Below are positions 1,149-64,000 of a stretch of 64,000 nucleotides of DNA, in pieces (position 1 is the stretch's first letter; each line of letters opens with the position of its first letter). Both the position numbers and the translations under genes were made by a program. The stretch comes from Deinococcus grandis (GTDB taxonomy: Bacteria > Deinococcota > Deinococci > Deinococcales > Deinococcaceae), in assembly GCF_001485435.1 (NCBI RefSeq), contig NZ_BCMS01000002.1, forward strand, positions 88,426-152,425, given 5' to 3'. The notes below the pieces were generated by a model. The model did no database searches, was not told the origin of the DNA, and worked only from the letters and a program-made list of their open reading frames with translations.

Positions 1149-1945
1149 CGGCTCGCCTCCCCCGCCTCTGCCCCGCCTTGCTGGACGTGCAGCAGCGCCA
1201 TGGCCTTGCCGCGCAGGTGTCGCATCTTCCCGATCCAGCCGTCGTAATCGGCGGCCTTGAGCTGAAATCCTTTCAGGGTGCTGGGGTGCGTGGTGATCAG
1301 GAACCCGCCTTCGCGCAGCACCTCCAGCGTCCTCGCGACCAGTTCGTCCGTCGTGATGGCCGTCTGCTGCAGCAGCGGCGCGTTCTGGATCATGGGCGTC
1401 CAGACACCTTCCGGGCACAGCGCGGCGACCTTGATGCCCCGGTCACCGTACGTGATGCTCAGCCACTCCGCGAACGCCAGCGCCGCGTGCTTGGTCACGG
1501 CGTACGGCGCGGAGTGCAGTTCCGTCAGCAGGCCCGCCGCCGACGCGGTGTTCAGCAGATACCCGTCGCCGCGTTCGAGCATGTGCGGCAGCACGTGCCG
1601 GGCCGCCCAGACGTGACTCATCACGTTCACGCGCTGGATCAGGTCCCACACGCGGTCCGGGGTGTCCGGCCCCTCGCCCACCGCGATGCCCGCGTTCGAG
1701 CAGAAGAGGTCGATACGGCCTTCATGCGCCAGCACGTCGTCGATCAGGCTCTTCACGCCCGCCTCCTGGCCCACGTCCGCCGGGATGAAGCGCGCGCCGA
1801 TCGCGGCCGCCTCCTGCGCGCCCAGCTCCGCGTTGCGGTCCGACGCCACCACCGTCGCGCCCTCCTGCACGAACGCCGCCGCCAGCGCCTTCCCGATCCC
1901 CGACGCCGCGCCCGTCACCACGATCACCTTGCGTTCAAACTCCAT
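1145..1945 (-). CDS. Short-chain dehydrogenase/reductase (SDR)
   Basis: MEFERKVIVVTGAASGIGKA is a Rossmann TGxxxGIG motif, and there is an SDR catalytic region. The ATG is at 1945 (internal Met33 of ORF 1145..2041). Confidence 0.8.
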   Translation of the reverse strand: MEFERKVIVVTGAASGIGKALAAAFVQEGATVVASDRNAELGAQEAAAIGARFIPADVGQEAGVKSLIDDVLAHEGRIDLFCSNAGIAVGEGPDTPDRVWDLIQRVNVMSHVWAARHVLPHMLERGDGYLLNTASAAGLLTELHSAPYAVTKHAALAFAEWLSITYGDRGIKVAALCPEGVWTPMIQNAPLLQQTAITTDELVARTLEVLREGGFLITTHPSTLKGFQLKAADYDGWIGKMRHLRGKAMALLHVQQGGAEAGEASR

Positions 1946-1946
1946 G

Positions 1947-2741
1947 TCAGCCCTCCAGTGAATCCGGGAACGCGTGGCCCCCGGCAAGTTGTTCGGTCGT
2001 CTGCCGCGACAGGGCCCGCACGCGGCCCAGCCAGCGGTCATGCGAATTCGCGCGCGCCTGGAACGCCCGTACGGTCATCGGATGCGTCGTGATCAGGAAC
2101 TGCCCCGACAGCAGGCCATTCACGGCCGCCTCCGCGACCTCCTCGGGCGTGATCGCCCCGGCCTGCAGGTGCGGCGCGCCCGCGATCAGGGGCGTCTGCA
2201 CCCACTCCGGGCACAGCGCCGCCACGCCGATCCCCCGTTCGCCATACGTGATTGCCAGCCACTCCGCGAAGGCCAGCGCCTCATGCTTCGTCACCGCGTA
2301 CGGCGCGGAATGCACCTCGGTCAGCAGGCCCGCCGCCGACACCGTCTGCAGCAGCGTGCCGCTCCCGCGCGCGAGCATGTGCGGCAGGACGTGCCGCGCG
2401 CCCCACACGTGACTCAGGACATTCACGCGCCACGACACGTCCCACAGCGCGTCGTCCGGCTCCAGGCCGTTCCCGACCGCCAGACCCGCGTTCGAGCACA
2501 GCAGGTCGACGCGGCCCTCGCGCGCCAGCACGTCGTCGATCAGGGCCTTCACCCCGGCCTCCTGCCCCACGTCAGCGGGCACGAACCGCGCACCGATCGC
2601 CGCCGCCTCACGCGCCCCGGCCTCCGCGTTCCGGTCGGACGCCACCACGACCGCGCCCTCCTGCACCAGACGCGCCGCCAGCGCCCGACCGATCCCGGAC
2701 GCCGACCCCGTCACCACCGCCACCGCCTGATTCAAGTCCAT
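1947..2741 (-). CDS. Short-chain dehydrogenase/reductase, tandem paralog of the preceding SDR
   Basis: MDLNQAVAVVTGSASGIGRA; about 70% identical to the neighbouring SDR over its full length. ATG at 2741 (Met14 of ORF 1947..2780), 1-nt gap to the next gene. Confidence 0.8.
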   Translation of the reverse strand: MDLNQAVAVVTGSASGIGRALAARLVQEGAVVVASDRNAEAGAREAAAIGARFVPADVGQEAGVKALIDDVLAREGRVDLLCSNAGLAVGNGLEPDDALWDVSWRVNVLSHVWGARHVLPHMLARGSGTLLQTVSAAGLLTEVHSAPYAVTKHEALAFAEWLAITYGERGIGVAALCPEWVQTPLIAGAPHLQAGAITPEEVAEAAVNGLLSGQFLITTHPMTVRAFQARANSHDRWLGRVRALSRQTTEQLAGGHAFPDSLEG

Positions 2742-2757
2742 GTGTACGCTCCTCGGT

Positions 2758-3156
2758 TCATCCCTCGGCCATCGGCACAACGAGTTGAGCCAGTCGAACC
2801 TCGACCTCGCGCGGATCGCTCAGTCTGCCCTGCGCCGTGTCCAGCACCAGGGTGAAGACGTCATCGTCTGAACCGCCCAGCAGCCAACCATTCATCGCCA
2901 GGAAGGTGTACGCCGCTGCGTACGCGGTGCGTTTGTTCCCGTCGACGAAGGCGTGATTGCGGGACAGGAAGTACAGGTACGCGGCCGCCTTGTCGGTCAG
3001 GCCGGGGTACAGTTCGACCCCGAACGCTTCCATCGCCGGTTGAGCGACCGCCGAGGCCAGCGCGCCCGCGTCCCGCAGGCCGGGCGTCCCGCCGAAATCG
3101 GCCAGTGCCTCGTCATGCAGGTCGGTGACGTCCTCCACCCTCAGATATGTCGTCAC
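2758..3156 (-). CDS. doc: Doc (death-on-curing) / Fic-family toxin
   Basis: Fic/Doc motif HAFVDGNKRTA (HxFx[DE]GNKR). 132 aa. The GTG start overlaps the antitoxin stop (GTGA). Local GC is lower than in the flanks. Confidence 0.8.
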   Translation of the reverse strand: MTTYLRVEDVTDLHDEALADFGGTPGLRDAGALASAVAQPAMEAFGVELYPGLTDKAAAYLYFLSRNHAFVDGNKRTAYAAAYTFLAMNGWLLGGSDDDVFTLVLDTAQGRLSDPREVEVRLAQLVVPMAEG

Positions 3157-33683: not shown

Positions 33684-33818
33684 TACGGATTCCGTTTATT
33701 TCGTTGACAGATCGGAACGCCACCGATCTGTCAACTCCACGTCCGGAATCCGTTTCTCTCCCACTCGCTCCGCTCGGATTGAACGGCTTTGTAAGCCATT
33801 CAATCGGAGTCCGTATCA
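33681..33818. mobile_element. MITE-like repeat, copy B2 (subfamily 2), in tandem with B1, flanked by TCA/TCA
   Basis: Core 33684-33815. The right TCA (33816-33818) is the stop codon of the P-type ATPase gene on the minus strand. Confidence 0.8.
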
Positions 33819-47224: not shown

Positions 47225-48976
<1,752 letters not shown>

Positions 48977-49045
48977 AGGGAACCTCCGGGGGGCGGGGGT
49001 GGGCGCGTGGACATTGATTCCCGACAGCCTAAGACCAGTTGGCCG

Positions 49046-49095
49046 CCACTTGCAACCCTCTTGCAAAGTGGCATGGCAGTGGTACGCTGCGGGGG
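49046..49095 (+). promoter_or_regulatory. Promoter/operator of the GntR regulator gene
   Basis: Inverted repeat CCACTTGCAA-N5-TTGCAAAGTGG at 49046-49071 overlaps the -35. The leaderless promoter is TTGCAA-16-TACGCT-7-ATG, with TTGCAA at 49061-49066, TACGCT at 49083-49088 and ATG at 49096. Confidence 0.45.
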
Positions 49096-49869
49096 ATGCC
49101 GCCCACGTCCGTCCACTGGACCATCCCGCTCGACAGCGCCAGCGCCACACCCGTCTACGTGCAGGTGGCACAGGGCCTCACGCAGCGCATCGAGAGCGGC
49201 CAGCTGCGCCCCGGCAGCGCCCTGCCGGCCGAACGCGACCTCGCCGCGCACCTGGGCGTCTCGCGCGTCACCGTGCGGCAGGCACTCGGGCTGCTCGCGC
49301 AGCAGGGGCTGCTCACGCGGCGGCACGGCAGCGGCACCTTCGTCACGCCGCCGCCCCGCCCCGGCGACCTCCCGGCCCGCACGCTGGGCCTCCTGTCCTC
49401 GTTCTCCGAGGACGTCCGCTCGCGCGGGCAGCGGCCCGGGGCCCGCATCCTGAACTTCGAACGGACCCGCCCCACCGCGCAGGAAGCCATGAGTCTGGCC
49501 CTGTCCCCCAGCGAGGCCGTGTACCGCATCCGTCGCGTCCGCACCGCCGACGGGGAACCGCTGGCGGTCGAGGACTCCACCCTGCCCGCCGCGCTGGTCG
49601 GCCCGCTCAGCGAGGCCGACGTGCACGACGCCAGCCTGTACGCCCTGCTCGCCGCGCGCGGCCTGAGCCCGGCGCGCGCCATCCGCCACCTGCGCGCCGT
49701 GAACGCCGACCTGACGCTGGCGCCGCTGCTGAACGTCACGGTGGGCGCCGCCCTGCTGACCACCGACCGCGTCTCCTGGCTGCAGGGAGGCCGCCCCATC
49801 GAGTACGCCCGCGCCCACTACCGCGGCGACCGCTACGACTTCGTGATGGAACTCCAGGGCGGCGCGTGA
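49096..49869 (+). CDS. GntR/HutC-family transcriptional regulator (UTRA effector domain)
   Basis: [41 protein letters not shown] is the GntR HTH, followed by a UTRA-like C-terminus. Confidence 0.8.
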
Positions 49870-51032
49870 CCGCCCCGCGCGTGCTGGGCCTGATGAGCGG
49901 CACCAGCGCCGACGGCATCGACGCGGCCCTGCTGGAACTGCCCGGCTGGCCGGCGCTGGGCGGGGGCGCGCCCCTGAAGCTGCCCGGCGGCGCGCCCCGC
50001 GGCCGGGTGGTGGCGCACACCTTCACGCCGTACCCGCCGGACCTGCGCGCCGCCGTGCTGCGCGCCATGCGGGACGAGGGCACGCCGGGCGAACTGACCC
50101 AGCTGCACTGGGCACTGGGTGAGGCCTTCGCGCAGGCGGCCGCGCCGCTGGCCCGCGACGCCGACCTGATCGCCAGTCACGGCCAGACCGTACAGCACCA
50201 CCCCCGGCCGGACGCGGCGCGCGGCTGGCACCGCCCCGCCACGCTGCAACTGGGCGAGGCGGCCCTGATCGCGCAGGCCACCGGCCGGGCGGTCGTGAGC
50301 GACTTCCGCCCGGCCGACCTGGCCGCCGGGGGGGTGGGGGCGCCGCTGGTGCCGTTCGCGGACTGGGCGCTGTTCTCGCAGCCCGGCGTGACCCGGCTGC
50401 TGCTGAACCTGGGCGGGATCGCCAACCTGACCCTGCTGCCCGGCACCGATCCGGCGCGCGTGCAGGCCTTCGACACCGGCCCCGCCAACTGCCTGCTGGA
50501 CGAGATCGCCGCCCGGGCGGGCCTCCCCTGCGACGAGGGCGGCGCGCTGGCCCGCGCGGGCCAGGTGCATGAACCCACCCTGCGCGCGTGGCTGGCCCAC
50601 CCGGAACTCACCGCGCCCCCACCGAAAGCCACCGGGCGGGAGGTCTGGACGCTGCCGCGCCTGCCCGCCCCCGCCCCCCTGAGCACCGAGGATCTCGCCG
50701 CCACCGCCACCGAGTTCACGGCCCGGACGGTCACCGCCGCACTGCGCTGGCTGCCCGCCGCCCCGCATGAGGTGATCGTGGCGGGCGGCGGGGCGCGGAA
50801 CCCGGCGCTGCGCGCGGCTCTGACGCGCACCCTGGCCCCGGCCCCGCTGATCACGTTCGCGGACCTGGGCTGGGACGCCCGGGGCTTCACCGACGCCACC
50901 CGCGAGGCGGCCGCCTTCGCGTTCCTGGGCTACGCGCACGCGCAGGGCTGGCCCAGCACCCTCCCCCACACGACCGGAGCGGCGCACGCCGCCCGCACCG
51001 GCAAGTGGAGCCCTGCTCCCGGAGCGTCATGA
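49866..51032 (+). CDS. anmK: Anhydro-N-acetylmuramic acid kinase
   Basis: [18 protein letters not shown] is the AnmK N-terminal motif. 388 aa. The GTG start overlaps the regulator stop (GTGA). Confidence 0.8.
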
Positions 51033-53620: not shown

Positions 53621-53867
53621 TCCGCTCGACTCGGTACAACATTGAACGTGTTTCAGATGGACTCGAGCCGGTGTCGCCCGGGCAGCGTGGCGACATCACC
53701 CGCCGGATCCCCCCTGGGGGGATTCGGGTTGAGTGGCCGTCTCCGTAGACTCACCCGCGACGGCCGGGCCGACCCCCCGGTTGCACGGGGACGTCGGGCC
53801 TGCCCGGCAGCGGGCCTCCGGGTACCCCCACGTCGGGGCGGCACGCCCCCTTCCGGCCTCGCGCCGT

Positions 53868-56800
53868 TCAGCGGTCCTCGCGCCGACCACCGGACGGGCC
53901 GGGGGCACTGACGGGCCGCGTCAGGTTCTGCCGCCGGCGGATGACCTCCGCGAGGTCCTGCACGGCGGCGTTCGTGGCCTGCTGCCCCTGCACGACGCTG
54001 GCCAGCGCGGTGAGCAGGGGCGTGACGACTCCGGTCAGCGGGTCGGAGTCGCCCGTAACGGGTGCGGGCGCCGGGCGGTCGCGCAGCGCGGCCAGGAGTG
54101 GGGCGAGCAGGGGTTCAAGTTGCGCGGCCAGCGGCTCGGCCGGAGCGGTGGGCGCCGCCGCCTGGGGAGCCGGAGCCGGTGCGGCTTGGGGCAGACTCAG
54201 GCGGTCCAGGCCGCCCGCGATGTCCGCGAGCTGCGCCACCATGCGCGCGCCGGTGTCTCCGTCGGCGGCGCCCATGCGGCGTTCGCGGGCGAAGTTCTCA
54301 CGGATCTGCGCCCAGCGCGCCGCCTGCTCGGGGGTCAGCGTGCCGCGCAGTTCGGCGAGTTTCAGGAGGTTCTCCTCGGCGCCGGTCGTGAGGAGCTGCG
54401 CCTCGCCGCGGTAGTGGTCGCCGATCACGCCGTCGAGTTCCGCGTCGTTCATGACGGGGCTGAGCTTCTCGGCGACCTTGTTCATGTTGCGGTAGCTGCC
54501 CTGGAGCTTGAAGGGCGGTTCGGTGCGGTCGCGGTCGGCCTGGGCGGCGCTGGTGATGTAAGCGGCGTTCACGCGGGCCAGCGTGTCGCGGGCGCGCAGC
54601 AGCAGGCGCAGCGTGGCGAGAATCTCGGTGAGTTCCGCCTCGCTGTACGGGTGCGACAGCTCGCCGGGATACTCGTGACCCTGGGCGCGGGCGACGAGTT
54701 TCGGGACGTCGCTCAGGTCCCGTCCGGCCAGCGGCGCGAGCACCGCGTTGCTGGTCAGGCTGTTCTCCACGTACGAGAGCAGGAAGGCGTCCTCCATGCC
54801 GCCGAGCACGTCACCGAGGTTGTAGACGTCGGCGCGGTTGGCGAGCATGTCGGGGATGCGGAACACCTCGCCGGTCTCGGTGTACGGGTTCCCGGCCATG
54901 ACGACCGCGAAGCGCCGCCCGCGCAGGTCGTAGGTGCGCGGCTCGCCGTTCCAGACGCCCTCGATGCGGCGGGTGCCGTCGGTCAGGGCGATGAACTTCT
55001 GCAGGAATTCCGGGTGGGTGTGCTGTATGTCGTCCACGTACAGCATGACGTTCCCGCCCATCTCCAGCGCGAGGTTGAGTTTCTCCAGTTCCTGCCGACT
55101 GGCCGCGTCCGGCGCCTGCGCCGGGTCCAGCGAGCGCACGGCGTGACCGAGGCTGGGGCCGTTCACGCGCACGAACACGAGGCCCAGGCGGTGCGCGACG
55201 TATTCCATCAGGGTGGTCTTGCCGTAGCCGGGCGGGGAGATGAGCAGCAGCAGGCCCATCAGGTCGCTGCGTTTGCCGTCCCCGGCCGCGCCGATCTGCT
55301 TGGCGAGGTTGTCCCCGATCAGGGGGAGGTACACGTCGGTGATCAGGCGGTTGCGCACGAAGGACGTCAGCGGGCGCGGCTGGAATTCCGCGAGGCGCAG
55401 CCGGGCCCGCTCGCGGGTCAGCACCGTCTGCCGCTGCGCCTGGAAGGCCTGCAGGCCGGGCAGGAACGTGCGGGCGTGCGCGGCGAGCCGCGCGAGCAGG
55501 TCGTCCGCCTGGAGGTGCAGCGTGCCGCCCTGGAGGCGCGGGTGGTCGCTCAGGAGGCCCGTGACGGTCGCGTCCAGCGTGACCGCGCGCGGCTGGGCGC
55601 GCAGGGCGTCCCCGGACAGGCGCAGGGCGACCGCCTCAGGCACGAAGCGAGCGTGGGCGTGCCACTCGGGCCGGGTGGTCAGGGCGTCCAGCCACGCGCA
55701 CGTGAGCGTCCAGGCCTGGACCGGGTCGTCCCGCAGGGCGTCCAGGCTGACGCGCAGGGCGTCGGGGTGCCCGGCGGCGCGCAGCTGCCCGTCCAGCGCG
55801 GCGTTCAGGTCGGCAGCGGCCTGCGTGAACGGGAACGCCCCGCCCACGTCCGGTGCGGCCTCAGTCAGGAACGCGGCGGCCTCCGGGATCACGGTGTCGG
55901 GAACGGGCAGCGGCACGCGGGTCAGGAAGTCACGCAGCGCGCCCTCCAGCGCCGTGCGGGCGTCCGCGAGGGCCGCGCCGCTGCCCAGCAGGGCCTGCAC
56001 CGCCCGCGCGGAGGTCAGGCGCGCCGTCCAGGTCGCGTCGGCCTGCGCCCAGAACGCGGCGCCCAGCGCGCGGGCCTCCGGCGGGGCGACGAGCGGCCCC
56101 GCGGCGTCCAGCAGCGGCAACAGCGCGTTCAGGATCAGCGCGGCGTCGTGATCGTGCACGCCCCGCTGGAACCCCTGGCGGTAGCGGGCAGCGGCGAAGG
56201 TGGCGACCAGTCCGGCCCGCGCGTCCGGCGTCAGGCCGCGCAGGGCGTCCAGGGTCAGGCCCTCCTGCCCCGCCCGCGCGGCGGCCAGGACCTCCCCGGC
56301 CAGGAATTCCGCGCGGGACAGGTCCGGGGATTCGCTCTCCACCGTCACGTCCCAGAACGCGCGGCCCGCGTCGAGCGCCGGGTCGCGCAGCGGCTCCATG
56401 AACTGCGTGCCGGTCAGGTGCAGCGCCAGGTGATCCCCGCGCGGCAGCAGCGTCAGGTCCAGCGCCTGGGTGTTCACGCTGAAGCGGTGGCGGCCCAGGC
56501 GGATCAGGGCGCCGCCGTCCCCTTCGAGGTCGGCGCGGTCGCGCAGGGTCCGCAGCGCCTGATCGCGCGCGGCCTTCAGGCGGGCCTCGATGTCCCCGGC
56601 GCGGACGCTGTCGCCCAGCTCGGTCAGTTTCAGGGTCAGGTCGCGCAGTTTCAGCACGAGCGCGTCCCCGGCGAAGAAGCCGTTCAGGGCGTCCTGATCG
56701 GTCAGGCGCGCCGCGCGCGCCGGGAGGCCTGCCAGGATGCGGTCGGCAGCGTCGGCGACGCCCTGCGCGCGGCGCTGCCGCTCGTCGAGCAGCGCCTGAC

Positions 56801-59090
56801 GGCGGGACTCGAAGGCCTCCACGGTCTCCTCGCGCCGGGCGAGGATGTCCGGCAGGAACGCCTCATGCTCCCCGAACTGCCCCTCGAGTTCCTCCAGGGC
56901 CAGCAGCGCGCGGGACAGGCCCTCCTCGGCCTTCTCGGGCGTGTCGGCGGTGCCCAGCGCGCCCGTGACGGTCTGCGCGAGCAGGGCCAGCTGCGCCGCG
57001 AAGCGCGCGGTGAGTTCCCCGCTTCCCAGGCTGCGGCGCTGTCCCTCGGCGCGGGCGCGCACGCCGTTCAGGCGGCCGTACAGCGCCGAGACCCCCTCGA
57101 CGACCTGGGTGCGCTGCACCGGGTCCTCGGCGGGCAGCGAGCCCAGCAGGTCCGACAGGACGTCCAGTTCGGTCGCCAGGGTGCCCAGCGCCTCCAGCGC
57201 CGCGGCGAGCTCGCGGGTGGTCCCTGCCGCCTCCACCTGCGTGTTCAGCGTGTCCAGCTGCGCGTGGAACGGGGCCAGGGCGGCCGGGTCGGCCAGGTAG
57301 CTGCCGGTCGCGCCGCCCACCCGCGCGTGCGCGGCCTGCACCTCCGCGAGCAGGGCGTCCACGGCGACCACGTCGATGGAACGGGTCTCGCGCACCGTCA
57401 GCAGCCGGGCGCGCAGCGCGGTCAGTTCCGCCAGGGCGGTCACGAACTCCGGCAGGCTGCGCCACCCCTCCGGGTCGAGGGTCGTCAGGCGGCGGCGGAC
57501 CGCGCCCTGCACGTCCGCGAGGGTCTGGGCCGCCTGGGCGCGCAGGGCCTGCACCTTCTCGAACTCGTCGAGCACCGCCTCGGCGGCGGCGGTGACGTCA
57601 CGCAGCAGCGTGCGCGCGCCGCCCGTGTGCTCGTCGTCGAGCCAGTGGTGCGTGTCCGGCAGGCGGCGGGCCTGCTCGGCCAGGGCGGCGTACTGGGCAG
57701 CGGTGACCTCCGGCGTCTGGGCGGCTCTCGCCAGGGCGAGGAGGTTCGACACGCCCCGCACGAGTTCCGCGTTCCCCAGCCGCCCCAGGAACGACGTGCC
57801 GGGCGGGCGCTGCGCGGCGAACACGTCACTCGTGAAGGGCGTCTGCCACACCTGCACCGCGTGCACCTGCGTGGGCTCGGCCTCGGCCTGGAACAGCACC
57901 ATCCGCCCGTCGGGCAGCGCGGCGTCCCCATGGGCGCTGATGGGCGTCTGCACCTCGCGGCGGATCAGGTTGTACACGAGAAACGCGCTGCGGCCCGAAT
58001 CCTGATCGTAGAAGACGAACAGCACGTCCTCCCCGTTCGGGCTGCGCACGACCCGGTCCAGGGCCATGCCGGGCGTGAAGCCCTCGAAGGCGCGGTGCTC
58101 GCCGCCCGGCAGGTAGTATCCGCCGGGGAAGACGATGCCGTGCTCCTCGGGCAGCTGCACGCAGCCGCGCGTGAGGGCGTCCTCGCGCGTGACCCGCCCG
58201 GTCAGCGTGTCGAAGATCAGGCCGCGCCACGTCTTCTCCCGGTACGGCAGGACGCGCAGCAGGATCAGGCGGCCCACCCGCGCGAACTCGAAGGTCGCGT
58301 CGTCCAGACCCTGGGTGCGCTCCTCGACCGGCTCGCTGTAGATGCCTTCACCGGTCTCGGTGTTGTTCTCGACCTTCACGGTCAGCGTGCCGCCCGCCGT
58401 CTCCACGAACAGCGTGTCCAGGATGTTCAGGTGCGGGAAGCGCCCACTGACCTCCTGGTCGCGCCCGGCGCGGGTCCACTCGAAATCGAAGGGCGGCAGC
58501 GGACTGAGGTCCCGTTCGCCGCGCGCATCGAGGTACCGCGCGCCCTCCCCGGTCAGGTCCCAGCGGAACACCCGCCGGTCGGTCAGGCGCTCCCCGATCT
58601 GGAACGACGCCAGCAGCCGCCCCGCGCGGATCTCCAGTTGCAGCAGCCGCGCGTGCCGGTAGTAGGCGTACAGTTCCTCGAAGTCCCGCACGAACGCCGA
58701 ATCGGTCAGGAACGACCCCTCCAGCGCGGCGGGCTGCACGTCGAACGCGCCCCCCTCATGCGTCAGGCGGTACAGCGCGAACACGTCCGCCAGTTCCGTG
58801 CGGGCCTTCAGGCCGTGCGTGACGTTGAAACCGAACAGCATCACGTCCCCGACCTGCACCAGATCCCGCCCGACGCTGGCCTGCGCGGTGCGGATGTGCG
58901 CCCGGCCCAGCAGACTCAGGCGACTGTCGCCGTACTCCGCGACGCGCGCGGCGTTCAGGCCCTCGGCGGCCGCGCGGACCTGCGCGCCCAGCGCGTCCAG
59001 GCGGCGGCGCAGCACCTCGAAACTGCCGCCCGTCTCGGTGCCGGGCGTGCCCGCTCCGGCCAGTGGTTCCTGCGTCATCCTCTCCCCCAT
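53868..59090 (-). CDS. Giant (1740 aa) multidomain protein with a single MoxR/AAA_5-like P-loop ATPase module near the C-terminus; function unknown
   Basis: Walker A is ISPPGYGKTTL at about aa 1285 (nt ~55230), Walker B is VMLYVDDIQ, followed by VVMAGNPYTE. The N-terminal ~450 aa is globular. About 700 aa of Ala/Leu/Arg/Glu-rich helical region follows. The C-terminal tail is Pro/Ala-rich. The protein is transcribed in the same direction as the flotillin gene, 120 bp downstream of it. Confidence 0.7.
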   Translation of the reverse strand: MGERMTQEPLAGAGTPGTETGGSFEVLRRRLDALGAQVRAAAEGLNAARVAEYGDSRLSLLGRAHIRTAQASVGRDLVQVGDVMLFGFNVTHGLKARTELADVFALYRLTHEGGAFDVQPAALEGSFLTDSAFVRDFEELYAYYRHARLLQLEIRAGRLLASFQIGERLTDRRVFRWDLTGEGARYLDARGERDLSPLPPFDFEWTRAGRDQEVSGRFPHLNILDTLFVETAGGTLTVKVENNTETGEGIYSEPVEERTQGLDDATFEFARVGRLILLRVLPYREKTWRGLIFDTLTGRVTREDALTRGCVQLPEEHGIVFPGGYYLPGGEHRAFEGFTPGMALDRVVRSPNGEDVLFVFYDQDSGRSAFLVYNLIRREVQTPISAHGDAALPDGRMVLFQAEAEPTQVHAVQVWQTPFTSDVFAAQRPPGTSFLGRLGNAELVRGVSNLLALARAAQTPEVTAAQYAALAEQARRLPDTHHWLDDEHTGGARTLLRDVTAAAEAVLDEFEKVQALRAQAAQTLADVQGAVRRRLTTLDPEGWRSLPEFVTALAELTALRARLLTVRETRSIDVVAVDALLAEVQAAHARVGGATGSYLADPAALAPFHAQLDTLNTQVEAAGTTRELAAALEALGTLATELDVLSDLLGSLPAEDPVQRTQVVEGVSALYGRLNGVRARAEGQRRSLGSGELTARFAAQLALLAQTVTGALGTADTPEKAEEGLSRALLALEELEGQFGEHEAFLPDILARREETVEAFESRRQALLDERQRRAQGVADAADRILAGLPARAARLTDQDALNGFFAGDALVLKLRDLTLKLTELGDSVRAGDIEARLKAARDQALRTLRDRADLEGDGGALIRLGRHRFSVNTQALDLTLLPRGDHLALHLTGTQFMEPLRDPALDAGRAFWDVTVESESPDLSRAEFLAGEVLAAARAGQEGLTLDALRGLTPDARAGLVATFAAARYRQGFQRGVHDHDAALILNALLPLLDAAGPLVAPPEARALGAAFWAQADATWTARLTSARAVQALLGSGAALADARTALEGALRDFLTRVPLPVPDTVIPEAAAFLTEAAPDVGGAFPFTQAAADLNAALDGQLRAAGHPDALRVSLDALRDDPVQAWTLTCAWLDALTTRPEWHAHARFVPEAVALRLSGDALRAQPRAVTLDATVTGLLSDHPRLQGGTLHLQADDLLARLAAHARTFLPGLQAFQAQRQTVLTRERARLRLAEFQPRPLTSFVRNRLITDVYLPLIGDNLAKQIGAAGDGKRSDLMGLLLLISPPGYGKTTLMEYVAHRLGLVFVRVNGPSLGHAVRSLDPAQAPDAASRQELEKLNLALEMGGNVMLYVDDIQHTHPEFLQKFIALTDGTRRIEGVWNGEPRTYDLRGRRFAVVMAGNPYTETGEVFRIPDMLANRADVYNLGDVLGGMEDAFLLSYVENSLTSNAVLAPLAGRDLSDVPKLVARAQGHEYPGELSHPYSEAELTEILATLRLLLRARDTLARVNAAYITSAAQADRDRTEPPFKLQGSYRNMNKVAEKLSPVMNDAELDGVIGDHYRGEAQLLTTGAEENLLKLAELRGTLTPEQAARWAQIRENFARERRMGAADGDTGARMVAQLADIAGGLDRLSLPQAAPAPAPQAAAPTAPAEPLAAQLEPLLAPLLAALRDRPAPAPVTGDSDPLTGVVTPLLTALASVVQGQQATNAAVQDLAEVIRRRQNLTRPVSAPGPSGGRREDR

Positions 59091-59213
59091 TCACTCCGGC
59101 GCGTTCGCCCCTCTCCCACGCCCGGTCTTCCGTGGGCGTGAGCCTGCCACGGTCCTCTCCTGCAGTCACTCAGCGGGGAGGTAGGCACCTGGCCCGCCCC
59201 CCGATCATCCGCC

Positions 59214-61172
59214 TCAGTTCGGGCGGTTCTCCCGCTGCACGTTCACGCCGAAGCGGCCCAGGACGCTCTGGAACAGCGGGCTCTTCTGCGTGAAGCCCTC
59301 CACGGCCTTGCCGAGGCTCAGGGCCCTGGTGAGGGCCTCGAACATGCCGCCCTCGCCGCCCACGAGGTCGATCCTGGCGTTCTTCAGGGCGGCGGCGATC
59401 ACCTCGGCGTTCTCGCGGCTGATCTCCTTGCCGGCCTCGATGGACGCCAGGGCCTGCTGGAGGCTGGTTTCGAGCGCCATGCGGTATTCCTCGTGGCTGC
59501 GGGCGTCGGCGCTCATGCGGTCCATCGCGCCGAACTTGGCGGTCAGGCCCTCGGCCTCGGCGTTCATGCGGTCGCGGGTGGCACTCGCCTCGGCGGCGCC
59601 CAGGGCCTCTGTGGCGGTGGCTTTCGCCTGACCGAGGCGGGTTTCGCCGTCGGCCTGCGCGCCCAGCCGCTCGGCGAGGACGCGGGCCTCGTTCTGCCCC
59701 AGCTTGAGGTTCGCGTCGGCCTTGACCTCGATCACGCGGGCTTCGGCCACGCCGGTCTTCTCCAGGGCGCTGGCGTTCGCTTCCTGCACCATGACCTGCG
59801 CGAGGCCCGGCGCGGCCTGCTCGACCTTGACGGCGTCCGCAAGGATCTTCTTCGCCTCGGCCTGCCGGGACGCGGCGTCGAATTCCGCCTGCGCGATGGT
59901 GGTCAGCTCCGCCGCGCGGTGACGGGCGGCGGTCTCGGCAGCCTCGGCGGCCTTGACCTCCTGCACGAGCTGTTCCTGCGCCTGCGCCTCGGCCTGCATG
60001 ACGCGCACCTGCTTGGCGCGGTCGGCGGCGCTCACCTCGCGCACCTCGTTGATGCGCTCCTCCTCGACAGCGACCGTCTTGTCGATGGCGATGCGCTCGC
60101 GGGTAATGTTCGCCACGTCCATGACGCCCTGCTCGACGTTCTTGTCGCGTTCGATCTCCTGGAGTTTCACCTCGCGGTCGGTGGTGACGGCTTCCATCTT
60201 CGCGGCGCGGGCGACGCGCTCGGCCTCGATGGCGATGGCGCGTAGCCTCGCCTGCTCGGCGATCTCGACCTGCCGCTGGCGTTCCTGCTCGCGGATCTCG
60301 ACCTGTTCGGTCGTCTGGATGCGGGCCTGCTCGGAGATGAGGCGCTGTTCCTCGCGTACGCGCTGCGTCTCGGCGTTCTCGCGGGCCTGGATGGTCTCGA
60401 TCTCGCGTTTCTGCCGCGCCTCGGCCTCGGCCTGCTGGCGCTCGAGGGCCAGGGTAGCCTCGCGGGTCTCGACGTTCTTCTTCGTGACGGCGAGGTGCTC
60501 GTTCTGCGAGAGTTCGTTCGTGACGACGTTCTGCGCGGCGGTCAGCTGCGTGATCTTGCGGATGCCCTCGGCGTCCATGATGTTGTTCTGGTCGAGCATG
60601 CTCTTGGGCGTCTGCTCCAGGTAGTCGATGGCGACGTCCTCGAGCACGTAGCCGTTCAGGTCGCGGCCGATCACGGCGACGACCGCGTCGCGGAACTCCT
60701 CGCGCTTCTCGAACAGTTCGATGAAGTCGAACTTCTTGCCGACCGTCTTCAGCGCCTCGCTGAACTTCGCGTTGAACAGTTCGTCCACGGCCTTGAGGTC
60801 GCTGGCGCGGTTGGCGCCGATGGATTTGGCGACCTTCAGGACGTCCTCGGTGGTCTCGTTGACGCGCAGGTAGTACGCGACGGTGATGTCCGCGCGGATG
60901 TTGTCCTTGCAGATCAGGCCTTCCTTGCCGCGCCGGTCGACCTGCAGGGTGATCAGGCTGATGCGCATGACCTCGGCCTTGTACAGCACGGGGATGACCA
61001 GCGCGCCGGTGAAGCGCACCTTGGGCCGCGCGGAGAGGTCGTTCACGATCAGCGCGGTGCCCTGCTCGACTTTCATGTAAAAGCCGCGCACGAGCGCCAC
61101 GAGCACCATCAGGGCGACGAGCACGACCGCCAGGCCGATCAGGAAGGGCAGAACTACGGAAAGGTCAGGCAT
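59214..61172 (-). CDS. Flotillin-family SPFH/band-7 protein (YqiK/FloT-like, 652 aa)
   Basis: N-terminal TM anchor plus SPFH domain (ALIVNDLSARPKVRFTGALVIPVLYKAEVMRISLITLQVD...), followed by a long EA/RQ-rich coiled-coil flotillin region. GGAGG RBS. Confidence 0.85.
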   Translation of the reverse strand: MPDLSVVLPFLIGLAVVLVALMVLVALVRGFYMKVEQGTALIVNDLSARPKVRFTGALVIPVLYKAEVMRISLITLQVDRRGKEGLICKDNIRADITVAYYLRVNETTEDVLKVAKSIGANRASDLKAVDELFNAKFSEALKTVGKKFDFIELFEKREEFRDAVVAVIGRDLNGYVLEDVAIDYLEQTPKSMLDQNNIMDAEGIRKITQLTAAQNVVTNELSQNEHLAVTKKNVETREATLALERQQAEAEARQKREIETIQARENAETQRVREEQRLISEQARIQTTEQVEIREQERQRQVEIAEQARLRAIAIEAERVARAAKMEAVTTDREVKLQEIERDKNVEQGVMDVANITRERIAIDKTVAVEEERINEVREVSAADRAKQVRVMQAEAQAQEQLVQEVKAAEAAETAARHRAAELTTIAQAEFDAASRQAEAKKILADAVKVEQAAPGLAQVMVQEANASALEKTGVAEARVIEVKADANLKLGQNEARVLAERLGAQADGETRLGQAKATATEALGAAEASATRDRMNAEAEGLTAKFGAMDRMSADARSHEEYRMALETSLQQALASIEAGKEISRENAEVIAAALKNARIDLVGGEGGMFEALTRALSLGKAVEGFTQKSPLFQSVLGRFGVNVQRENRPN

Positions 61173-61229
61173 ACGTCCTCCAGGCAGGAAAAGGGAAGTT
61201 CAGGGTCGGGAATCTAAGAGGTTGAGGGG

Positions 61230-61826
61230 TCAGGAATCGGTCGGGTCCGCGCGGCGGACGGTGAAGATGTGGGTGGCCGGGTCGTGCTCGACGAGGATCA
61301 CGCGTTCGCCGCGCCGCAGGGTGTCGCCGTCGCTGCGGGCGTCGAGCATCAGGCCCGCGCCGCCGTCCTGAACGCTCACGCGACCGGTCGAGGCGAGGGT
61401 GCCGGATTCGACGACCGCCACGCGGCCCAGCAGCTGCGTGCGGGCTAGGGCGTCCTGCCCCTGCACGAAGCGCCGCAGGGGACGGGCGACCGCCCGCGCG
61501 GCCAGCGCGCCGAGGGCCGCGGAACCGAACAGCAGCGCAACGGCCACAGGGCCGCGCCCCGCGGGGGCGACGAGCGGCAGGAGCAGCAGCTGGCCCAGGT
61601 AGCAGCTCAGCCAGCCGGTCAGGGTCAGGGCCAGCGCGACGGGCAGCAGCGGCACGCCGTTCAGGCCGACCCGCACGAGCAGACTGTCGAGCAGGCCCTC
61701 ACCCCCGCCGGAGATCCCGTCGATGGCGCCCAGCAGGGCCAGCAGCGCCGCCGCCGCGATCAGCGTCAGCAGGGCCGTCCAGGGCGCGGTCGGGAACGAC
61801 AGCGCCACGTGCAGGAACTCGGTCAC
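61230..61826 (-). CDS. NfeD-like membrane protein (YqiJ/YuaF-type, C-terminal OB-fold), the usual partner of flotillin
   Basis: 198 aa. Three to four TM helices, then RVAVVESGTLASTGRVSVQDGGAGLMLDAR...GERVILV, an OB-fold beta-rich C-terminus. GTG start. 57-bp gap to the flotillin gene. Confidence 0.7.
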   Translation of the reverse strand: MTEFLHVALSFPTAPWTALLTLIAAAALLALLGAIDGISGGGEGLLDSLLVRVGLNGVPLLPVALALTLTGWLSCYLGQLLLLPLVAPAGRGPVAVALLFGSAALGALAARAVARPLRRFVQGQDALARTQLLGRVAVVESGTLASTGRVSVQDGGAGLMLDARSDGDTLRRGERVILVEHDPATHIFTVRRADPTDS

Positions 61827-62036: not shown

Positions 62037-63695
62037 TCAGAGGGCCGCCGCGTCCAGCGGGCGCAGCAGCCCCCCCAGGTCCGCGCCGGGCGCGGCCCCC
62101 GGCGTCAGCGGCCAGCGGCACACGCGGTTGCGGCCCGCGCGCTTGGCGGCGTACAGCGCCTCGTCCGCGCCGCGCAGCAGCGTCTCACCGGAGAGCTCCG
62201 CGGCGCGCGCCGCGCCGATCGAGACGGTCAGCGTCCACGGGACGTCCGGGAAGACGCTGCGTTCCACCGCCGCCCGGACTCGCTCGGCGACGCCGTCCAG
62301 CGCGTGCGGGGGCAGGCCGCGCAGGATCAGCGCGAATTCCTCGCCGCCGTAGCGGTACGCGCGGTCCTCGCCGCGGCTGGCGCTGGCCAGCAGCCGCCCC
62401 AGCTGCGCCAGCACGGCGTCCCCGGTGGGATGGCCCAGCGTGTCGTTCACGCGCTTGAAGTGATCGAGGTCCACCAGCAGCAGCGCGTCGTGACCCGTGA
62501 GGGTCTGGAGGTCCTCCTGGAACTGACGGCGGTTGCCCAGGCCCGTGAGGGGATCGGTCAGGCTCTGGCGCTGCGCCTGCGCGTGCAGGGTGCGCAGTTC
62601 GTTCAGGTGGCGTTCCAGCGCGGCGTTGCGGGCGCGGGTGTCGTCCATGCCGCGCAGGACGTCCATCAGGCGCGCGGCGTGACGGGTCTGCCCGGCGTGC
62701 GCGTGCCGCTCGTGCTGCCGCGCGAGTTTCAGGTGCCGCAGCGCCCCCCGGTCATCCCCGGTGGCCTCCAGCGCCCCCGAGAGCTGCTCGTGCAGCAGCC
62801 CGGCGCGGTAGTGGCTGCCCAGGTCGGCGCGGTCCAGGACGCCCCGCAGCAGCCCCGCGGCGTCCCCGGGCGGCAGGTGCAGGCTCAGCGCCGCGACGAC
62901 CTCCACCTGCACGTCCAGGTGCGGGGACGCCAGGAGCTCCCGCAGACGCGCGAGTTCCGCCTGCGGGGCCGGATAGCCGCCCAGCGCCGAGGCGCGCACG
63001 ACGCCGTGCAGCGTCCAAGCCTCGATGCTGGGATGCTGCGCGATCATCGGGTCGGCCTGCGCCGCGCGGTAGCGGGCCAGGGCCGAATCGAACTGCCCGG
63101 CCTCCCGGTCGAGATCGCCGAAGTTGCCGTTCACGAGCAGGTCCCCGATCGGGTACCGGCAGCGCCGGAAGGCGTCCTGCGCCTGCAGCAGCAGCTCACG
63201 CGACCGCGCGGGATTCAGCTCGCGCAGCTGCACGGCCAGGTCGTGAATGCCCGACGCCCACAGTTCCGTCAGGTCCAGCGCCTCGCACAGCTGGATCTGC
63301 TCGTCCAGCAGGGCCAGCGCGAGATCCGGTTCGTTCAGGTCCCCGGCCAGGCACGACAGGACGCTCGCGGCGCGCGCCTGCCACACGCTAGGCCCCTCGG
63401 TCCGCAGGGTGCTGAGCGCCGCGGCGAGGTTCAGCGACGCCCGCTCGAAGGTCCCACTGCGCCAGTCGAGGTACGCGAGCACGACCTGCGCCTCGAGAAC
63501 CGCGCGGCCCTCGGCGCTGCGGCAGGCCAGGTCGCGGGCCCGGTCGGGGTCCAGGTCGCGCAGGGTCCAGGCATGATCGGCGAGGTGCAGACTTGACGGC
63601 ACGGGGTCCTCCGGCGGGACGTGGGCGGCGGGTGAGGGCAGGTCCTGATCCGAGTGTGCCGCGCCGCGCCTCTCAGAGGCTGTCTGGAAAGTCAT
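62037..63695 (-). CDS. Diguanylate cyclase (GGDEF) with an N-terminal TPR-like helical domain
   Basis: RYGGEEF; DPLTGLGNRRQF. The annotated ATG at 63695 overlaps the stop of the transposase fragment (ATGA), so the N-terminus may have been altered by the IS insertion. Confidence 0.75.
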   Translation of the reverse strand: MTFQTASERRGAAHSDQDLPSPAAHVPPEDPVPSSLHLADHAWTLRDLDPDRARDLACRSAEGRAVLEAQVVLAYLDWRSGTFERASLNLAAALSTLRTEGPSVWQARAASVLSCLAGDLNEPDLALALLDEQIQLCEALDLTELWASGIHDLAVQLRELNPARSRELLLQAQDAFRRCRYPIGDLLVNGNFGDLDREAGQFDSALARYRAAQADPMIAQHPSIEAWTLHGVVRASALGGYPAPQAELARLRELLASPHLDVQVEVVAALSLHLPPGDAAGLLRGVLDRADLGSHYRAGLLHEQLSGALEATGDDRGALRHLKLARQHERHAHAGQTRHAARLMDVLRGMDDTRARNAALERHLNELRTLHAQAQRQSLTDPLTGLGNRRQFQEDLQTLTGHDALLLVDLDHFKRVNDTLGHPTGDAVLAQLGRLLASASRGEDRAYRYGGEEFALILRGLPPHALDGVAERVRAAVERSVFPDVPWTLTVSIGAARAAELSGETLLRGADEALYAAKRAGRNRVCRWPLTPGAAPGADLGGLLRPLDAAAL

Positions 63696-64000
63696 TTTCG
63701 AGCTGGTGACGGCTGTTCACCAGCGAACGCCGCGAGTCTGCGAATCATAAGCCGAACAAACGACACAACGATGAACGCCGCCGTTGTACTCGGCAGCAGG
63801 TCATACTCCCGGTTCAAGCGACGATCAAACGACAACCACGCGAAGCTCCGCTCCACCACCCACCGCTTGCGCAGCACCTTGAACGTCCGATACCCCCTGA
63901 ACGTCTTGATCTGTTCCTCCGTCAATTCCTGTCCCACAGGCAGCCAATACCTTCGGGTGTTGGCATCCGCACGCCGTACCACTTCCACGCTGAACCCCAG
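63692..64000 (-). mobile_element. 3' end of an IS5/IS4-type DDE transposase gene (partial IS element running off the window)
   Basis: C-terminal signature KRWVVERSFAWLSFDRRL (the R-W-x-V-E-R-x-F-A-W-L motif of IS5-family transposases). Local GC drops to about 50%. Confidence 0.6.

Follow-up and report, generated by a model that had tools for sequence, protein, structure and literature searches.

Three adjacent minus-strand genes in a 64,000-nucleotide stretch of Deinococcus grandis DNA (contig NZ_BCMS01000002.1, 72% G+C; hereafter the window) encode a short NfeD-like membrane protein of the YqiJ/YuaF type, a YqiK-type flotillin and a giant protein of 1740 residues that carries a single AAA+ ATPase module. 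This trio is a further instance of a known, widespread and functionally uncharacterised operon type, present here without PspA on a Deinococcus megaplasmid, and its ATPase is the obligate partner of one flotillin subfamily. A first reading of the window from its letters alone (the sequence-only reading) had put the trio forward as an undescribed system. This does not hold, because an operon encoding CesT/Tir-PspA, band-7/flotillin, AAA+ beta-propeller ATPase and YqiJ/YuaF proteins has already been reported (Ravi et al. 2024, mSystems; PMC11237479), and Pseudomonas aeruginosa possesses orthologues of the three genes, bacC, bacD and bacE. The three core proteins and their domain descriptions are alike in the published operon and in D. 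grandis, and nothing essential differs. Ravi et al. also noted abbreviated operons devoid of PspA and proposed a role in sub-membrane dynamics (PMC11237479); the D. grandis trio, which has no adjacent CesT/Tir (DUF2170)-PspA pair, corresponds to such an abbreviated form. New relative to that study are two-way linkage counts, models of the giant's structure and the identification of PA3728 as its P. aeruginosa counterpart.

The evidence that the three genes belong together comes from their neighbourhoods in other organisms. A genome scan using an alignment of the giant as query, with one genome per species, kept 80 loci out of 567 relatives. By tblastn, a flotillin gene was found directly upstream of the giant gene and on the same strand in 77 of these 80 loci, the three misses lying at contig ends, so that the association is complete wherever the locus is usable (77/77). 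Upstream of the flotillin gene, 71 genome loci have the NfeD-like gene by tblastn, or 73 by clustering, and the order NfeD, flotillin, giant is constant. The reverse test started from the flotillin in 80 metagenome loci. The giant was present downstream in each of the 73 that leave 600 nt or more for it, and the NfeD-like gene was present upstream in 73/73 with room. Because the linkage holds in both directions, this subfamily of flotillins has the ATPase as an obligate partner (77/77 and 73/73 loci), as had been surmised when the giant was first called an obligatory-looking third gene, and chance adjacency of the trio, which was also considered, is rejected by the same counts. Profiling of flotillin neighbourhoods, a check proposed by the sequence-only reading, thus found the trio kept in every related locus with enough sequence. 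That reading would have been abandoned for a giant from a characterised, unrelated family in an unconserved setting; instead, the family is named yet uncharacterised and the trio is conserved.

The two large proteins have also diverged in parallel, since their pairwise-distance matrices are correlated with r = 0.90 (none of 999 permutations reached as high a value), which shows that they are inherited as a unit. Across phyla, giants share on average 53% pairwise identity and flotillins 58%. Taxonomically, the loci cover Gamma- and Betaproteobacteria (Xanthomonadales, Pseudomonas, Xenorhabdus, Gilliamella, Marinobacter, Comamonadaceae), Myxococcota, Actinomycetota, Zetaproteobacteria and a metagenome-assembled genome of Clostridia, and matches to the giant protein include Deinococcus and Longimicrobium. 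Among the fetched genome loci, a set without Deinococcus, the nearest relatives of the D. grandis proteins are found in Lysobacteraceae (77% identity for the flotillin, 58% for the giant). This proximity, together with plasmid copies in five phyla, suggests that the trio has been transferred across phyla. No copies of the trio were found in the phage collection or in IMG/VR.

In D. grandis, the gene for the NfeD-like membrane protein occupies positions 61230-61826 (198 residues, GTG start), that for the flotillin 59214-61172 (652 residues) and that for the giant 53868-59090 (1740 residues from the first ATG). The coordinates and translations of the open reading frames (ORFs) agree with the initial description of three co-directional minus-strand genes separated by gaps of 57 bp and 123 bp. 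The flotillin ATG is preceded by GGAGGA (Shine-Dalgarno). The giant gene has a second ATG at 59078 (MTQEP...), preceded by GGGGAGAGG, which is used as start in the GenBank record to give a protein of 1736 residues and which is probably the true start. In each of the three genes the G+C content at third codon positions (GC3) is 0.94. An antisense ORF of 1802 codons opposite the giant gene (53733-59141, plus strand) was rejected as a gene, because with a GC3 of 0.78 and a first-position value (GC1) of 0.94, against the GC3 of 0.94 in the minus-strand genes, it behaves as a shadow ORF of high-G+C DNA. No terminator or promoter was detected between the trio genes by a consensus scan, which is weak and largely uninformative evidence. 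The trio is located on the 389.6-kb megaplasmid pDEGR-1 of D. grandis ATCC 43672 (AP021850.1), where the giant is 100% identical over 1740 residues by tblastn, and the corresponding entries (DEGR_34860, DEGR_34870 and DEGR_34880) are each annotated 'hypothetical protein'.

The assignment of the two smaller proteins relies on direct comparison with their E. coli counterparts. The 198-residue protein has three to four hydrophobic segments between residues 11 and 114, followed by a C-terminal soluble domain of ~80 residues. Its match to Pfam NfeD (PF01957; E = 0.0024, 18.5 bits) is under the curated cut-off of 29.1 bits, and NfeD is matched by just one of 25 orthologues. The alignment of its profile with E. 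coli YqiJ by hhalign (88.8% probability, E = 2.5e-6, 136 columns) offers moderate support for the YqiJ/NfeD-like identity originally proposed, and that with the B. subtilis YuaF structure 2k14 is weak (E = 0.97). The 652-residue protein gave nothing against Pfam at E <= 10 save one unrelated DUF, Band_7 (PF01145) and Flot (PF15975) being unmatched, and no significant match to PDB sequences even when a profile search was included. Its homology became clear only via direct comparison with YqiK from MG1655, by BLASTP (E = 1e-41, 28% identity over 472 residues) and by hhalign (99.9%, E = 3e-32, 400 columns), which establishes it as the true YqiK-type flotillin that it had been taken for, despite the absence of a Pfam match. 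Among 21 flotillin orthologues, one matches Band_7 (E = 1.4e-7) and two match Flot weakly; the missing matches thus reflect divergence from the Pfam profiles and do not contradict homology to flotillins. The protein displays an N-terminal membrane anchor (hydrophobic residues 1-36), an SPFH domain, a long coiled coil rich in Ala, Glu, Arg and Gln (21% Ala, 15% Glu and 11% Arg in residues 231-560) and a conserved C-terminus.

The giant, which the sequence-only reading could not place in any named family, does belong to one. It matches DUF3686 (PF12458) with E = 4e-175 over residues 39-482 and profile positions 3-448 of 448, and DUF7902 (PF25472) with E = 4.2e-22 over residues 604-687, while an AAA/AAA_5 match lies around residues 1281-1408 (AAA_5 24.2 bits, cut-off 22). 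There are at least 4498 homologues, with a query coverage of 92-100% among the 120 matches listed, and these carry the NCBI name 'DNA repair ATPase', Pfam describing DUF3686 as 'ATPase involved in DNA repair' and JGI labelling some family members 'MoxR-like ATPase'. In a collection of 1.84 billion cluster representatives, DUF3686 is N-terminal in nearly all listed matches; the long ones mostly have 1600-2000 residues, and many of the shorter ones are probably fragments. The protein has a computed mass of ~188 kDa, slightly below the >190 kDa first stated, and, one weak hydrophobic stretch aside, it lacks transmembrane segments. In the literature searched, no paper mentions DUF3686 or PF12458, none combines 'flotillin' with 'DNA repair ATPase', no functional study came up for YqiK with AAA+ and propeller, and no paper was found testing the ATPase itself.

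An idea of the architecture of the giant came from two AlphaFold2 models, built from 56-sequence alignments of relatives with at least ~45% identity and covering residues 1-1100 and 840-1740 (mean predicted local distance difference test, pLDDT, 80.1 and 80.5, respectively). The DUF3686 region (residues 39-482; 57645-58976, minus strand) is predicted by Pfam and model to comprise helix, propeller and the first stalk helices: the N-terminal helix spans residues 23-53 and a beta-propeller of ~26 strands spans residues 59-416 in the model. The propeller is echoed by Foldseek matches of the N-terminal part to PDB beta-propellers (pseudaminidase, Elp1, prolyl oligopeptidase and the clathrin terminal domain; E = 1e-6 to 1e-4). 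A helical stalk follows at residues 434-855 (56526-57791, minus strand), with helices of up to ~50 residues according to DSSP on the model, and contains DUF7902. The middle domain (residues 862-1240; 55371-56507, minus strand; pLDDT mostly >90) would consist of a small beta unit at residues 862-901 and then a helical domain in which an invariant GxHDHD motif is found (residues 977-982); it has no convincing relative in the PDB. The ~700-residue helical region originally described is not uniform, as it comprises the stalk, the beta unit and a mostly helical domain that extends to about residue 1240. A single AAA+ module with its lid and a C-terminal helical domain occupies residues 1245-1630 (54201-55358, minus strand; AAA_5 and model), and by composition and pLDDT the chain ends in a low-confidence Pro/Ala-rich linker and a C-terminal helix (residues 1631-1740; 53871-54200, minus strand). 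In the second model, pLDDT falls below 50 at local positions 793-812 and 833-843, and the helix is at local positions 845-884. The tail (residues 1626-1740) is 20% Ala and 15% Pro and is poorly conserved in the family, the consensus being mostly 'x'.

The motifs GYGKTT (residue 1288), VMLYVDD (residue 1348) and VVMAGNPY (residue 1396), as well as the Pro/Ala-rich tail, are present where the sequence-only reading had claimed, and the assignment of one AAA_5/MoxR-like P-loop module to the third gene is borne out by the AAA_5 score, with MoxR-type proteins among its weak structural neighbours. Walker A (GYGKTT, residues 1288-1293) contributes K1291 and Walker B contributes D1353 and D1354. These residues, together with N1401 (AGNPY), R1419 (LANRAD) and R1534 (GSYRNM), are invariant in the 56 sequences and at least 90% conserved once Actinomycetota and Myxococcota are included. 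By analogy with the motifs of MoxR proteins, N1401, R1419 and R1534 are candidates for sensor 1, arginine finger and sensor 2. Since the Walker A, Walker B and candidate sensor-1, arginine-finger and sensor-2 residues are all invariant, the giant is likely to be an active ATPase.

One member of the operon type with published data is the bac operon ('biofilm-associated cluster') of P. aeruginosa. There, the locus (L081) reads thrC ... DUF2170, PspA, a 213-residue protein, a 688-residue protein, the giant (1746 residues; P0251, 3222 member sequences), a PLD-type protein, YaeQ, RecJ and an M4 peptidase (LasB). In PAO1, lasB is PA3724, recJ is PA3725 and thrC is PA3735. Gene order, this numbering and published gene sizes for PA3729, PA3730 and PA3732 identify the giant as PA3728; the sizes are those of PMC2587700. 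The operon thus consists of PA3732 (BacA, the DUF2170 protein), PA3731 (BacB, PspA-like), PA3730 (BacC, NfeD-like, 213 residues, 36% identical to the 198-residue D. grandis protein), PA3729 (BacD or PaFlo3, the 688-residue flotillin, 60% identical to that of D. grandis), PA3728 (BacE, the giant, 55% identical to the D. grandis giant over 1686 residues) and PA3727 (BacF, PLD-type; L081 13260-13952). The orthologues of bacC, bacD and bacE occur in identical order in D. grandis, whereas bacA, bacB and bacF are missing there, a GGDEF gene precedes the trio on its Deinococcus megaplasmid, and no sigma-54-type site was found near the operon.

Co-transcription and stress induction of this operon type have been shown in P. 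aeruginosa only. All six genes bacABCDEF are co-transcribed according to reverse-transcription PCR, with a predicted sigma-54 site, and BacB to BacF are up 6- to 13-fold in a bacA mutant (PMC10948618). Accumulation of the PspA-like BacB has been seen in biofilm and following osmotic shock, and a mutant in its gene shows defects in both biofilm and virulence (PMC2587700). Every phage-infected sample showed up-regulation of PA3728-PA3732 (PMC12041424), as did, together with rtc, a stressed proteome (PMC13637947), and PA3728 is among the genes recurrently mutated in cystic fibrosis isolates (PMC8190622). PA3729 and PA3731 have been listed in vesicle proteomes, among hundreds of proteins and not specifically (PMC12893005).

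Some of the other genes that recur around the trio suggest a link to membrane stress. Across 81 genome loci, ORF clustering and Pfam identified only DUF2170, PspA, TelA and PLD as recurrent further neighbours. A pair encoding a DUF2170 (CesT/Tir-like) protein and PspA/IM30 lies directly upstream in 40 of the 81 loci (36 in the same direction, four divergent), and in 40/60 metagenome loci with room. TelA is found downstream in 17 loci, from Xanthomonadales, and 13-14 genome loci have a PLD-type (HKD) protein gene after the giant. In P. fluorescens SBW25, plasmid pQBR103 (L165 1-12181) carries the trio directly behind a block encoding PspA, rhomboid, DUF2491, DUF350, DUF1190 and glutathionylspermidine-synthase-like proteins; this block is a yjfJKLMC-like PspA/polyamine operon, and the arrangement unites two PspA operon classes that are separate in Ravi et al.

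On balance, we favour the view that the trio is an envelope-stress module, in abbreviated PspA-less form, whose ATPase remodels the scaffold formed by the flotillin and, where present, by PspA. Solved SPFH assemblies form scaffolds or cages. In this scenario, the YqiJ-like membrane protein would partner the YqiK-type flotillin, which would be anchored by its N-terminus and oligomerise through its coiled coil into a large scaffold or cage at the cytoplasmic face of the membrane. The soluble 188-kDa ATPase would dock on this scaffold via its beta-propeller and helical stalk, and its single MoxR-like AAA+ module would use the energy of ATP in building, dismantling or clearing the flotillin lattice, as well as PspA polymers if present, under envelope stress. 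Such an action would be akin to that of Vps4 on ESCRT-III and to the pairing of FtsH with the HflK/C cage, and it is by analogy with these two systems that we infer docking, oligomeric state, ATP hydrolysis and the remodelling role. A bolder proposal, which we put forward only tentatively and consider rather doubtful, is that the giant founds a distinct AAA+ class (propeller, stalk, middle domain without a detected structural relative and MoxR-like ring) dedicated to the ATP-driven remodelling of bacterial flotillin cages. If true, the giant would stand to SPFH scaffolds as Vps4 does to ESCRT-III, and it would provide the first energy-dependent step in the dynamics of bacterial flotillin microdomains.

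Several points speak against the envelope-stress scenario. Deletion of PaFlo3 in P. aeruginosa reduced biofilm only marginally (~20%) and gave no stress phenotype under the conditions tested (PMC13086221). None of the PspA, DUF2170, TelA and PLD genes is found within the 64-kb window, so that in Deinococcus a link to PspA is by analogy only. The spacer between the flotillin and giant genes holds 0.5-3.4 kb of unrelated genes in some loci, which implies that tight translational coupling is not required, and the Walker B of the giant ends in DD, not the usual DE. Finally, every physical interaction in the scenario, and the ATPase activity itself, is deduced indirectly.

Comparison with related systems helps to delimit what might be particular to this operon type. 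The E. coli yqiJ-yqiK locus encodes, with gene order unchanged, the YqiJ-like partner and a homologous flotillin (YqiK, E = 1e-41), yet it contains no ATPase gene, whereas the D. grandis-type flotillin subfamily (at least ~50% identity) is always found with one. To our knowledge, the yuaF-floT operon of B. subtilis has no ATPase gene either. In HflK/C-FtsH, an SPFH-family scaffold of the inner membrane is paired with an AAA+ machine, which provides a functional analogy for the flotillin and the giant. However, FtsH is a membrane-anchored protease of the classic AAA clade, whereas the giant is a soluble protein without a protease domain and carries a MoxR-like module. NorQ, CbbQ and MoxR 2r44, which are, with BchI, MCM, RuvB and ClpB, the structural neighbours of this module (all weak), tentatively relate it to the MoxR family (RavA, NorQ, CbbQ), and its sensor-1 and arginine-finger motifs presumably resemble those of MoxR proteins. 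MoxR proteins, however, have ~300-500 residues and usually a VWA partner, whereas in the giant the module comes at the end of a 1740-residue chain; no VWA protein was found among the conserved neighbour families of trio loci, rarer neighbours not having been individually scanned for VWA. The analogy with Vps4/ESCRT-III lies in a dedicated AAA+ enzyme linked to a polymer of the PspA/ESCRT-III superfamily, and Ravi et al. (2024; PMC11237479) suggested a Vps4-like analogy for associations between PspA and AAA+ proteins generally. Nevertheless, the giant differs from Vps4 in having no detected MIT domain, in probably belonging to another AAA+ clade and in that its strict partner is the flotillin rather than PspA.

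Other functions for the trio have to be weighed against the same evidence. The phage induction of PA3728-PA3732 in all infected P. aeruginosa samples (PMC12041424) could indicate anti-phage defence or abortive infection, in which the flotillin/NfeD pair would sense membrane damage caused by phage and the ATPase would execute the response, together with the PLD nuclease in loci that encode one. The PLD gene, located behind the giant in P. aeruginosa as well as in 13-14 of the genome loci, would suit such a role, since BacF resembles the PLD components DrmC of DISARM, MkoB/C of Mokosh and DpdK of Dpd (E = 3.6e-9), as would the patchy distribution of the trio, its copies on large plasmids and nearest relatives that cross phylum boundaries. 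However, PspA induction by phage is a classic envelope-stress response and no evidence of immunity, the PLD gene is missing from most loci and from the window, and the trio is absent from phage genomes and IMG/VR. Moreover, no core protein has a match beyond noise in PADLOC-DB 2.0 (IetA, E = 0.005, through the P-loop; LmuB, E = 4e-4, through the coiled coil), and mean identities of 53% and 58% are high for defence genes. A defence function is thus unlikely. We regard as very unlikely the idea of a membrane-coat or vesiculation machine, in which propeller and long helical region would form a coat that shapes or pinches the membrane at flotillin domains and the AAA+ module would recycle it. It draws on the linkage to PspA, which belongs to the ESCRT-III superfamily, on the presence of PA3729 and PA3731 in vesicle proteomes (PMC12893005) and on Foldseek matches of the N-terminal 1100 residues to clathrin heavy chain, IFT-A and nucleoporin scaffold proteins, all with a propeller and then helices (E = 1e-5 to 1e-4). 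Yet the TM-scores of these matches are 0.06-0.14, as expected from a generic propeller and generic helices, the helices of up to ~50 residues evoke a coiled-coil stalk rather than a solenoid, and the vesicle list is not specific.

The name under which the giant is found in databases conveys a third possibility, that it is a DNA repair ATPase for which adjacency to a flotillin is irrelevant. Besides the Pfam description of DUF3686 and the NCBI name, this draws on weak matches to the RuvB P-loop, on the host being a Deinococcus and on the location of recJ near the giant in P. aeruginosa. The RuvB matches, however, are confined to ~50 residues around the P-loop (21.7 bits against a cut-off of 282; Pfam, NCBIfam), and no DNA-binding, nuclease or helicase domain was detected in the giant. 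Linkage to membrane proteins is absolute, recJ is not among the conserved neighbours, and no radiation/desiccation-response motif was found near the operon. As the literature searched, in which no paper containing DUF3686 or PF12458 was found, offers no experimental basis for the name, it appears to be inherited annotation, and a role in DNA repair is so improbable that we give it hardly any weight.

We know of no dedicated ATP-driven partner of bacterial flotillin assemblies. The giant, whose linkage is strict to one flotillin subfamily and frequent to PspA, ranks with the largest proteins conserved in many Proteobacteria, such as P. aeruginosa (where PA3728 is phage-induced), Stenotrophomonas and Xanthomonas. 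The label 'DNA repair ATPase' is probably misleading and diverts annotation from the membrane. Once shown, the function of the ATPase would shed light on a pathway of envelope stress with ties to biofilm and virulence; the question of its job is real and testable, yet it has already been posed in print. For D. grandis itself, the value of the present analysis is mainly corrective, as it places three 'hypothetical proteins' of pDEGR-1 in an operon type already described.

Upstream of the trio in D. grandis, after a 210-bp gap, lies a gene for a GGDEF diguanylate cyclase (62037-63695, minus strand; PF00990, E = 4.7e-36). The order GGDEF, NfeD, flotillin, giant is also found on a Deinococcus actinosclerus plasmid (L164, GGDEF at 1592-3073), and GGDEF is absent from the neighbour families conserved over the 80 genome loci. 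The gene is possibly a lineage-specific neighbour outside the conserved core, and its adjacency may represent a Deinococcus-specific link to signalling by cyclic di-GMP. Just upstream of it, a 98-codon ORF with a DDE transposase domain (PF13586), perhaps a remnant, is present at 63692-63988 on the minus strand, for which GenBank has a longer coding sequence of 160 residues sharing the same stop. Downstream of the giant and on the same strand are genes for a CsoR-type metal-sensitive repressor (PF02583; 53065-53367, minus strand) and, according to GenBank, a copper chaperone, which are not conserved neighbours elsewhere.

Between flotillin and giant, some other organisms carry lineage-specific insertions. 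Their ORF translations read as a nucleotidyltransferase/HEPN-like (toxin-antitoxin-like) pair with a hydrolase, as membrane proteins, as two copies of an Rpn-family nuclease and as small zinc-ribbon proteins; the loci concerned are L025 (6546-9938), L028 (7443-9887), L044 (7917-9950), L033 and L065. Far from the operon, TTATTTCGTTGACAGAT at 33696-33712 (plus strand) is the single match in the window to the radiation/desiccation-response motif pattern used, with two mismatches and 0.03 matches expected by chance. Finally, a mechanically called ORF of 709 codons at 48903-51032 (plus strand) has an AnmK domain only in residues 326-701; its listed start is probably too far upstream, or else it spans two genes.

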